Of a DNA stretch of 64,000 bases, positions 3,219 to 52,578 are shown piece after piece. The position numbers and the translations under genes were made by a program. The notes beneath the pieces were generated by a model. The model searched no databases, was not told where the DNA came from, and saw nothing but the letters and a program-made list of their open reading frames with translations. How positions within the stretch are numbered: the first letter of the stretch is position 1; every line of letters starts with the position of its first letter. Origin of the DNA: Mustelus asterias (Eukaryota); the NCBI RefSeq assembly GCF_964213995.1, contig NC_135814.1, forward strand, positions 14,508,001-14,572,000. The letters run 5' to 3'.

Positions 3219-4046
3219 ATCGTGAGCACTTCCACTTTAACATATCAAGTGAGCGTTTTTCAAGTTTGTTGTAACAGGTTGAGGTTCACCTGTGGTCATT
3301 TCACATTTCACAGGTGCCAAATGAAACAAGGAGGTAATTCCATTAATCATTGATATTCTGCCAAGCGATGGCTATCAGAAATACTGAACTTGTTGACCTA
3401 TCCTTTATACGTACAGATGGTAGAGCTTTGATTTCCACTAAAGTGCAGGATGAAAGGGACAATCATTACTGATGTTACAACAATGATTTTAACCATATGC
3501 TCTCTCACTTATAAAAGATGCTTGATTATTAAGCGGTTAATATTCTGTATCACCAAAGTATTTGGAATGAATCCAATTCCAAAATATAATTTGCAACAAA
3601 TACTGTTGACCTCATCATGAAAGAAAGGGTTATTATTATTAATTAATGGCACTTCTCCAGCTGTCTGTACTTTTACCCTTGGAAAATGATGAGAAGAAAA
3701 ATGCCAGTATTCACGAAATGTTTAAAGAACTCGGGCAGTGTGTCTTTTGGGATTTGTTAAAAATGTGCCAGGAGTCACTCCTGCTCTATTCAAGCTCAAA
3801 CCTGAACATTATTTAACCGGAGAGACATTTACTAAAGGTTTCATCATGAGCTCTGTGATCGGGCATCGGAAGATAATTAAAAGGATGCTGGGACATTAAC
3901 AGATGTGTCTTCAAGCCGGCTGTTTCTAAAATTGCCAGATAATGTTTGAAAGACTTTTTTCAGTGTTAGCTGTTGGAACAATTGTGCCCAACTGCAGGGA
4001 TTAAAGCATCAACAATTTTTTGGTTTTACTTTCCGCTTTGCAGCAC

Positions 4047-50315: not shown

Positions 50316-50640
50316 GGGCAGCACAATGGCACAGTGGTTAGCACTGCTGCCTCACAGCGCTAGGGACCTGAGTTCAATTCCGGCCTCGGGTCACTGTCTG
50401 TTTGGAGTTTGCATGTTCTCCCTGTGTCTGTGTGGGTTTCCTCCGGATGCTCTGGTTTCCTCCCCAAGTCCAAAAATCTGCGGGTTAGGTTGATTAGCCA
50501 CGGTAAATTGCCCCTTAGTGTCAGGGGGATTAGGAGGGTAAATACGTGGGGTTACGGGAATAGGGTCTGGGTGGGATTGTGGCCGGTGCAGACTTGATGG
50601 GCCGAATGGCCTCCTTCTGCACGGTAGGGATTCTATGATT
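50316..50640 (+). mobile_element. HE1-type V-SINE (CR1 tail)
   Basis: Full-length copy. Confidence 0.9.
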
Positions 50641-50792
50641 CAAAGCTTGTTTTTTTGTTGTAAAAATAAATTTAAAGTAATGGTGAAGATAAAACATTGA
50701 GAAAAGTAGTTAAATTATAATCTACTAAGGCTTGGAACAGTTTCCCCACTGACGGAAAAAGGAAGGAAAGATTGTGACTGAAGAAAATGTCC

Positions 50793-51131
50793 CATAGAAT
50801 CATAGAAACCCTACAGTGCAGAAGGAGGCCATTCGGCCCATCGAGTCTGCACCGACCACAATCCCACCCAGGCCCTACCCCCACATATTTACCCACTAAT
50901 CCCTCTAACCTACGCATCCCAGGACTCTAAGGGGCAATTTTTAACCTGGCCAATCAACCTAACCCGCACATCTTTGGACTGTGGGAGGAAACCGGAGCAC
51001 CCGGAGGAAACCCACGCAGACACGAGGAGAATGTGCAAACTCCACACAGACAGTGACCCGAGCCGGGAATCGAACCTGGGACCCTGGAGCTGTGAAGCAG
51101 CAGTGCTAACCACTGTGCTACCGTGCCGCCC
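50793..51131 (-). mobile_element. HE1-type V-SINE (CR1 tail)
   Basis: Full-length, near-consensus reverse copy. Confidence 0.9.
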
Positions 51132-51222
51132 TAAGGCTTCTGGGGTGCCAGCCTAAGGCAGTATGGGAAATTGTGGGTGTACCATTTTAAATTTGCTGAC
51201 AATTAAAATTAACAGTCAACTA

Positions 51223-51550
51223 TGGGCGGCACAGCAGCACAGTGGTTAGAACTGCTGCCTCACAGTGCCAGGGACCTGAATTCAATTCCAGCCTCGGATC
51301 ACTCTCTGTGTGGAGTTTGCACATTCTTTCCGTGTCTGCATGGGTTTCCTCCGGGTGCTCTGGTTTCCTCCAACATCCAAAGATGTGCGGGTTAGGTTGA
51401 TTGGCCGTGTTAAATTGACCCTAGGGTCAGGGGAATAGCAGGGTAAATATGTGGAGTTATGGGAATAGGGCCTGGATGGGATTGTGGTCAGTGCAGGCTT
51501 GATGGGCCAAATGGCCTCCTTCTGCACTGTAGGGATTCTATGATTCTATG
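51223..51550 (+). mobile_element. HE1-type V-SINE (CR1 tail)
   Basis: Full-length copy. Confidence 0.9.
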
Positions 51551-51700
51551 GGCTGTGTAACTCTGAATAGCTACTTGTGAATGTGTTTTTTTTGTTGGGA
51601 ATGGAGAGATCAACCTTAAAGTGGAGGAATTGATGACAAATAAGTTGTCACGGTCATACCTTTTGCTTTGTCTTCCGTGTGAGTGGTTGGTTCCTTCTCT

Positions 51701-52036
51701 AACATGAAAGTTTTGGCTAAGATCAAGTGTAGTATGGATCACCTGCACTTGGTTGAGATCATTAGGTTATGCTGAGGCTTCATATGTTTCATATGAAGCA
51801 ATTTTTAAAAGCGGCATCTCGGCCTTTTGGCTAAGATGCAAATGAGCTCAAGTCTTGGAGGAGGATCCTCCCCCTTCTCCAATCAGCTTGACTCATGTAG
51901 ATCAGGCCCAGGACAGGGTGGTTTTGGTCTCCCGTCCTGTCTTGTCAGCCTGGATCTGAAATGTCTCAACTTGTTGAGACTCTGAATTGGATTTGAGTTG
52001 ATTGAATTGGAAAAGTATAAAAAAAACATGAAAGTT
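51701..52036 (+). mobile_element. Short retroposed element with two U2 snRNA-derived segments (candidate U2-headed SINE), including 12 bp TSD
   Basis: TSD AACATGAAAGTT at 51701-51712 and 52025-52036. TTTTGGCTAAGATCAAGTGTAGTAT (51711-51735) equals U2 nt 15-39, and TCTCGGCCTTTTGGCTAAGAT (51817-51837) equals U2 nt 7-27. A-rich 3' end. Confidence 0.8.
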
Positions 52037-52154: not shown

Positions 52155-52578
52155 GTTTAAAGATTTAAAGTTTATTTATTAGTGTCACAAGTAGGCTTTC
52201 ATAAACACTGCAATGAAGTTACTGTGAAAATCCCCAAGTCACCACACTCTGGCTCCTGTTCAGGAACACTGAGGGAGAATTTAGCACGGCCAATGCACCT
52301 AACCAGTACGGCCAGAATTCTCCCAACCCTCCCGCTGCTGGAATTCTAGCGGGCGGGTTGCGGAGAATGTGAAATGCCATCGACAGTCGGGCCGAATTTT
52401 CGGCTTTTAGACCAGCGCGGCCAGAGAATTCTGCCCTACATCTTTCAGACTGTGGGATGAAACCGGAGCACCCGGAGGAAACCCACGCAGACACGGGAAG
52501 AACGTGCAAACTCCACACAGACAGTCACCCAAGCCGGGAATCGTACCTGGGTCCCTGGTGCTGTGGCACCGTACCACC
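52155..52578 (-). mobile_element. V-SINE, alternative tail subfamily, interrupted by a MITE
   Basis: Reverse copy split at 52310-52436. Confidence 0.85.
52310..52436. mobile_element. 127 bp MITE inserted in a V-SINE
   Basis: GGCCAGAATTCTC...GAGAATTCTGCCC, TSD TAC. The host SINE sequence is contiguous when the MITE is removed. Confidence 0.85.

Follow-up and report, generated by a model that had tools for sequence, protein, structure and literature searches.

The window analysed here, a stretch of 64,000 nucleotides from Mustelus asterias, contains at positions 51713-52024 a slightly 5'-truncated, young copy of a dispersed SINE family whose head is derived from U2 snRNA. Our overall reading, to which we assign a probability of about 0.7, is that this copy belongs to a U2-headed, A-tailed retroposon of roughly 5,000 copies, which is likely to be mobilised by a Keno-type LINE and likely to be transcribed from sources located in U2 genes. 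The genome contains the family itself, with target site duplications (TSDs) and heads that start at U2 +1, insertions at U2 38/39 that it has in common with the LINE, and copies that lie behind U2 upstream DNA. From these arrangements we infer mobilisation by the Keno-type LINE and the existence of U2-embedded sources driven by the U2 promoter.

The insert had been described in an earlier note as being about 310 bp long, with a perfect 12-nt duplication and an A-rich tail, and this description is accurate. The direct repeat lies at 51701-51712 and 52025-52036. Because two nucleotides (TT) of the 25-nt head match belong to the left TSD as well, the insert itself comprises the 312 bp from 51713 to 52024. 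The two U2 segments, which the note had placed about 100 bp apart, are both exact when compared to the U2 gene of the same genome (L031) and are 106 nt apart; in this comparison no further U2 match of 8 nt or more was found in the insert on either strand. The features are as follows, all on the + strand.

51701-51712, +: left TSD, 12 nt, the final 2 nt being shared with U2 15-16 (junction microhomology); present as a single copy at the empty site (run X11)
51711-51735, +: U2 head, U2 15-39 (25 nt), 5'-truncated; complete copies begin at U2 +1
51743-51768, +: antisense arm; predicted pairing partner U2 11-36, the helix being interrupted by two 2x2 internal loops
51777-51799, +: 10-bp hairpin, the length of which differs between subfamilies
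51812-51837, +: second, older U2 segment, with U2 7-27 (21 nt) at 51817-51837; the 4 nt before it are those of the -4 to -1 flank of major U2 genes, from which they probably originate
51838-52010, +: 3' body, with predicted hairpins and a short-repeat end, without similarity to the LINE
52011-52024, +: A-rich tail, without AATAAA
52025-52036, +: right TSD, direct repeat of the left TSD

A rough estimate of the chance of such matches is about 1e-4 for the 12-nt TSD and 2e-8 for the U2 25-mer. Rfam gave no match at gathering threshold in the whole window, where U2 appeared as a sub-threshold match only, and no ribozyme or other snRNA pieces were found by Rfam in the window. No homology was seen between the insert body and the U2 spacer. 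The empty orthologous site that the note had proposed to look for is present in a contig of another organism (organism G, run X11), which joins 51700 to 52025 and skips 324 nt, the 12 nt fitting both sides. It is one contig, with a depth of 5.3 and a shorter side of 116 nt. Since it has a single copy of the TSD, the element in the window is a true insertion, absent in organism G. Several copies of an abundant tRNA-type SINE, which we take to be HE1/SacSINE-like, flank the insert in both orientations (50500-51546 and 52270-52570).

The note had interpreted the insert as a 5'-truncated copy of a U2-derived SINE, and had suggested that a family would be recognised by many dispersed copies with full-length heads and distinct TSDs. 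All of these were found. Exact patterns for the tail and for the head junction gave 4,988 and 2,721 matches in the genome respectively, and reversed controls gave 0 for both; such exact-pattern counts are lower bounds, and the family comprises roughly 5,000 copies. A DNA search with the SINE returned 2,127 first-look candidates, and the 40 that were scored are 97-100% identical and are located on many contigs. All 30 of the head-pattern loci that were read contain the same two-module body. That the insert is a one-off chimera made by a template switch on U2, or a chance match, has a probability close to nil and is ruled out by the thousands of copies with this body.

Among 139 near-full copies, 39 have a match to U2 that begins at +1, the others beginning at 2-19, and in 98 the match stops at 39-40. 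The start is within 10 nt of U2 +1 in 51 of the first 74 tail-selected copies on C1. TSDs of at least 10 nt are present in 82/172 copies, compared to 11/172 in a swapped-flank control, and differ from copy to copy; apart from AA at the nick, the target sites (n = 62) have no motif in common. The SINE is about 285-326 nt long plus the tail. It forms subfamilies that can be told apart by their head-body junctions and whose divergence reaches about 12-17%. Parts of the window are represented in runs of 10 studies; the four runs compared with it gave 2,851 contigs for X1, 1,725 for X11, 2 for X8 and 0 for X9. Many close copies occur in runs of organisms A and G, and in organism D a diverged but full copy was seen once. 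Old, diverged copies at L256 (- strand, about 3580-4040) and at L281 are directly followed by U2 from 39/40 onwards, so that the association with U2 predates the young subfamilies. Two further loci, L316 and L325, are U2-headed but have another continuation after U2 nt 30, and possibly represent another or older U2-headed family.

The candidate partner was found in a U2 array on C24, where a LINE is inserted at U2 38/39 and is followed by U2 38-191. Its ORF1 contains ZCCHC3-type RNA-binding domains and a zinc knuckle (CCHC), and its ORF2 an APE endonuclease, a reverse transcriptase (RT) and zf-RVT. The LINE is followed by the 20 nt that PMC6136364 gives as the target of Keno. The note had Keno and Utopia inserting at about U2 37-38; the shared site stands, but the position needs correction, as the downstream flank of both begins at U2 nt 39 according to PMC4640811. 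In its APE endonuclease, its 20-nt target and its occurrence in U2 arrays, inserted ahead of U2 nt 39, the shark LINE resembles Keno, the U2-specific member of the Tx1 clade (PMC4494074, PMC4640811 and PMC6136364, in the parts that deal with it). It differs from Keno in being mostly dispersed, in taking a head of U2 1-33/35 along to sites outside U2, and in having a SINE passenger. Of 32 LINE 3' ends that were sampled, only 5 lie at U2 39, and because this falls short of strict U2 specificity the LINE is called Keno-type and not Keno. The same sample has a SINE within 60 nt of the LINE 3' end in 9/32 cases.

The LINE is young and widespread: there were 6,060 first-look candidates, 128 of which were scored at 94-100%, and one dispersed copy has unbroken ORFs of 353 and 1135 aa. 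The homologues found for its protein bear no Keno label, and the named fragments of highest identity come from two sharks, at 82% identity over 6% of the query and at 69% over 12%. The array itself (G000:C24:44815159-44935499, L061) is a tandem repeat with a unit of 8,035 bp and about 15 units, in each of which an intact U2 gene is accompanied by a U2 interrupted by the LINE. The LINE copy in it has broken ORFs and was amplified along with the array. Its ORF1 (L061:1675-2571) matches both of the Pfam RNA-binding domains whose names derive from ZCCHC3, a host gene of vertebrates.

In the note, the link to Keno had been a coincidence of position. It is now directly supported. There are 29 sites in the genome with an exact match to poly(A) followed by U2 39-58, of which 21 have the tail of the LINE (15 of these being units of one tandem array), six have the tail of the SINE, and two are without assignment; the tail of any other LINE was not seen at these 29 sites. 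Seven SINE tails at six loci directly abut U2 39-52, compared to 0 in the control, for which we estimate a chance of about 0.02, assuming up to 1,000 such 14-mers. At L134, the same TSD separates LINE, SINE and SINE. One U2 gene at the end of the major array contains a whole chain, which reads promoter, U2 1-40, SINE, degraded TSD, truncated LINE, TSD, SINE, U2 39-191 and 3' flank. Judged from these genomic arrangements, the Keno-type LINE very probably mobilises the SINE.

It might be argued that the SINE is real but is moved mainly by another LINE, such as a diverged Tx1, an L1 or Utopia. The SINE and the young Keno-type LINE have nothing in common beyond U2, and no shared 3' tail. The genome also contains more diverged Keno-like LINEs (about 67% in the 3' UTR), and Utopia uses the same U2 site, with 20-bp TSDs in reptiles (PMC4640811). 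However, 27 of the 29 sites belong to the Keno-type LINE or the SINE, TSDs are shared within the LINE-SINE chains, and both elements are young. Utopia, which like the shark LINE shows loosened specificity (in crocodilians), has a restriction-like endonuclease, unlike the APE of the shark LINE (PMC4640811), and was not seen at the sampled U2 sites. We consider a different main partner very improbable, although the diverged Keno-like LINEs could be additional partners.

The two elements also occur in tandem. Among the 74 tail-selected copies, 18 abut another SINE or LINE end, for which chance would be about 1e-4. The upstream partner is nearer to the youngest subfamily in 23 junctions and the downstream one in 4, with 3 ties; junctions within one array are not independent. 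The ages of the partners are not separated by private changes (55/8133 vs 64/8164, p 0.46) or by CpG decay (6/73 vs 13/72, p 0.09), and the distance from nick to head varies. The tandems could result either from sequential re-use of a site or from serial priming in one event. At L020 (G000:C2:112470998-112474315), at least six SINE copies of different subfamilies are arranged head-to-tail with one-base joins, possibly a SINE-derived satellite.

How such a SINE is transcribed is less obvious. The head of a SINE is normally where its internal pol III promoter resides, and an snRNA head cannot provide one. U2 promoters are external (PMC4494074), and U2-embedded sources that use the U2 promoter would explain the transcription of promoterless elements. 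Copies downstream of U2 gene upstream DNA, which the note had proposed to look for, do exist: four SINE copies (L140a, L270, L268a and L265) lie directly behind such DNA. In L140a, the head follows the flank of the major U2 genes (98.5% over 200 nt). In the other three, it follows the flank of variant U2 genes, with identities of 257/260 (L270), 238/245 (L268a) and 235/245 (L265), and this flank has a proximal-element-like match. The L268a SINE is identical to the window copy at 294/300 positions. The variant genes share 85-90% identity with U2, and it is possible that they are not active.

The major U2 array (G000:C24:42985299-43060740; L062, L063, L140) has units of 1,833 bp, several of which have a U2 gene bearing a 16-nt internal duplication near nt 21-37. 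The second array, of variant genes (G000:C21:28.05-28.09 Mb; L259, L260, L270), has a unit of about 449 bp and different upstream DNA, and is heavily invaded by LINE and SINE.

Some SINEs may have moved together with U2-locus DNA. Four dispersed blocks contain both between outer repeats (18 nt in L268, 13 nt in L267, 10 nt in L265, imperfect in L266), and three of the four have U2 39-58 behind the SINE tail. This suggests read-through from a U2-embedded copy; it is also possible that the SINEs entered the blocks after these had moved. A dispersed copy at L272 has 7 nt of the U2 upstream flank inside its TSD. Taking these loci together, we think that the sources are probably U2-embedded copies transcribed from the U2 promoter.

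A different view of the same family and partner is that dispersed copies serve as the sources, transcribed by read-through from promoters of the host or of LINEs, and that the +1 end arises when the RT switches onto abundant U2 snRNA within the homologous head, the U2-embedded copies being by-products of a residual target preference of the endonuclease. Extra U2 pieces on the 5' end gave 46 pattern matches, and the 30 that were read are found across all subfamilies, have differing junctions and fall into no clades, which means that template switching fits them as well. Two copies with the same junction (L321 and L327) are not sisters in the tree, and extension copies group with U2-embedded ones only in weak clusters (support 0.76-0.92). 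Kojima took similar extensions of SINEU-2 to be template switches (PMC4494074). Nor is any of the U2-embedded copies identified as a master: the pattern of major flank, head and window subfamily junction has two matches genome-wide, neither in a promoter, and L140a is not a demonstrated master because it has an internal deletion and is 7.7% away from its nearest sampled relative. Dispersed sources are however difficult to reconcile with head ends and head substitutions that are subfamily-specific and inherited with the body, with the rarity of 5' transductions (long non-U2 5' extra sequence in only 1/70 TSD-bearing copies), and with the U2-locus DNA 3' of the SINE tail in the blocks, which a 5' switch cannot supply. 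We therefore regard them as unlikely, and favour the U2-embedded sources.

It is less likely still that any full copy can act as a source, either through an internal promoter or because the 3' part of one copy drives the next in a tandem, in the manner of HeT-A. The tandems described above would fit with this, and the body does contain an 8-mer that we take to be octamer-like and a 10-nt match to what is presumably the proximal element region of U2. The 10-nt match is however in a hairpin arm, is altered in older subfamilies, and is about 90 nt from the next head and not 60; there is no octamer-like site within 500 nt upstream of the U2 gene. An internal PSE/octamer promoter is thus not supported. 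There is also no match to a pol III A or B box in the SINE, and there are four runs of four or more T (at 15, 106, 129 and 226 in the copy at L150), in contrast to a classical pol III SINE, which has an internal A/B-box promoter and no early T runs.

With U2-embedded sources, the cycle can be pictured as follows. The external U2 promoter would start at +1 and read U2 1-39 into the SINE body. ORF2 of the LINE would nick DNA at AA, mostly anywhere and rarely at U2 38/39, and would reverse-transcribe the SINE RNA from its A tail. Most daughters, such as the window copy, would be promoterless dead ends, and a rare landing in a U2 gene would renew the sources. The most speculative step is a role for the predicted antisense arm, which would hold the U2 head in a fold, out of reach of its pairing partners in the spliceosome. 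The complete picture is of an independently evolved shark SINE, a parasite both of a U2-targeting LINE and of the external U2 promoter, with a few U2-embedded sources, thousands of promoterless daughters, and an arm that masks the branch-point- and U6-pairing segments so that the chimeric RNA avoids the spliceosome. We put it forward tentatively, as having slightly less than an even chance of being correct in all its parts.

The shark SINE works like the SINEU families of crocodilians, with a different partner and presumably a body of its own. SINEU-1, -2 and -3 (Kojima 2015, PMC4494074) likewise have a U2-derived head (U2 1-39 in the shark), more than one snRNA segment, a poly(A) tail, TSDs and a length below 500 bp, as well as internal T runs, tandems sandwiching a TSD, and extra snRNA pieces at the 5' end. 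The shark family also has a multi-copy shared body which is not part of a LINE. The Tx1 partners of SINEU themselves carry snRNA heads, as the Keno-type LINE does, and there is no shared sequence tail between SINEU and Tx1-Mar. Mobilisation by a Tx1-clade LINE is indicated for the shark SINE by the site and TSDs that it has in common with the Keno-type LINE, where the evidence, like that for SINEU in PMC4494074, is confined to genome sequence. The shark SINE appears to be set apart from the three families, as they are described, by its probable partner and its specific target (Keno-type and U2 38/39, compared to Tx1-Mar and Mariner-N4), and by copies inside U2 genes and an antisense arm, neither of which is described in the relevant sections of PMC4494074. 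The closest working analogue is provided by the R2 SIDEs of Drosophila (PMC3414825), which are also non-autonomous passengers of a site-specific LINE and depend on a host RNA-gene co-transcript. They are internal deletions of the LINE that have a ribozyme and stay in rDNA, whereas the shark SINE has no LINE body and no Rfam ribozyme, and is dispersed.

According to PMC4494074, SINEU is absent outside crocodilians, and the transcription of snRNA-headed SINEs is an open question. A U2-headed shark SINE is not described in the sections consulted of the literature searched (including PMC5786205, PMC5499810 and PMC7245038), Repbase and Dfam being outside this comparison. The present family extends snRNA-headed SINEs beyond crocodilians and gives Keno a non-autonomous passenger, and the empty site indicates that young copies can serve as presence/absence markers for sharks. 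The genome offers a concrete route for the transcription of the SINE in the form of named U2-embedded loci, those at G000:C24:43060551, C21:~28064500 and C14:~62230100; if true, the reading as a parasite of the U2 promoter would show by example how transcription of snRNA-headed SINEs is achieved.

The antisense arm was seen in structure prediction. A complete SINE copy folds with a z-score of -6.5, and its junction loop is followed by 26 nt that form an imperfect reverse complement to U2 11-36. Among 129 copies, the 22 pairs of the helix between head and arm are each present in 87-100%, and the common variants exchange a Watson-Crick pair for G-U or the reverse. In 29 copies, 98.2% of cells pair, compared to 25-42% when slid, the structure being derived from the same sequences. 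Changes on both sides were found in 2 of 69 pairs, with none in the head-arm helix. The 80-nt fold of the truncated window copy is not significant alone (z -0.4). The arm is shorter and weaker in the young LINE (z -2.3 and -0.8), and is absent in two diverged LINE copies. The arm covers segments of U2 that presumably pair with U6 and with the branch point, and it is plausible that it masks them.

Four of 174 copies have 10-17 A>G changes in the sense strand with 0-2 T>C, namely L247 (-) 559, L076 (+) 2035, L181 (+) 1229 and L162 (-) 1153. This is the pattern that arises when ADAR edits duplex RNA which is then reverse-transcribed, and these four copies look like products of A-to-I hyper-edited RNA templates. 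Overall, there are 127 A>G and 88 T>C changes. When the eight copies with three or more are left out, the numbers are 65 and 83, so that the excess is mostly due to a few hyper-changed copies.
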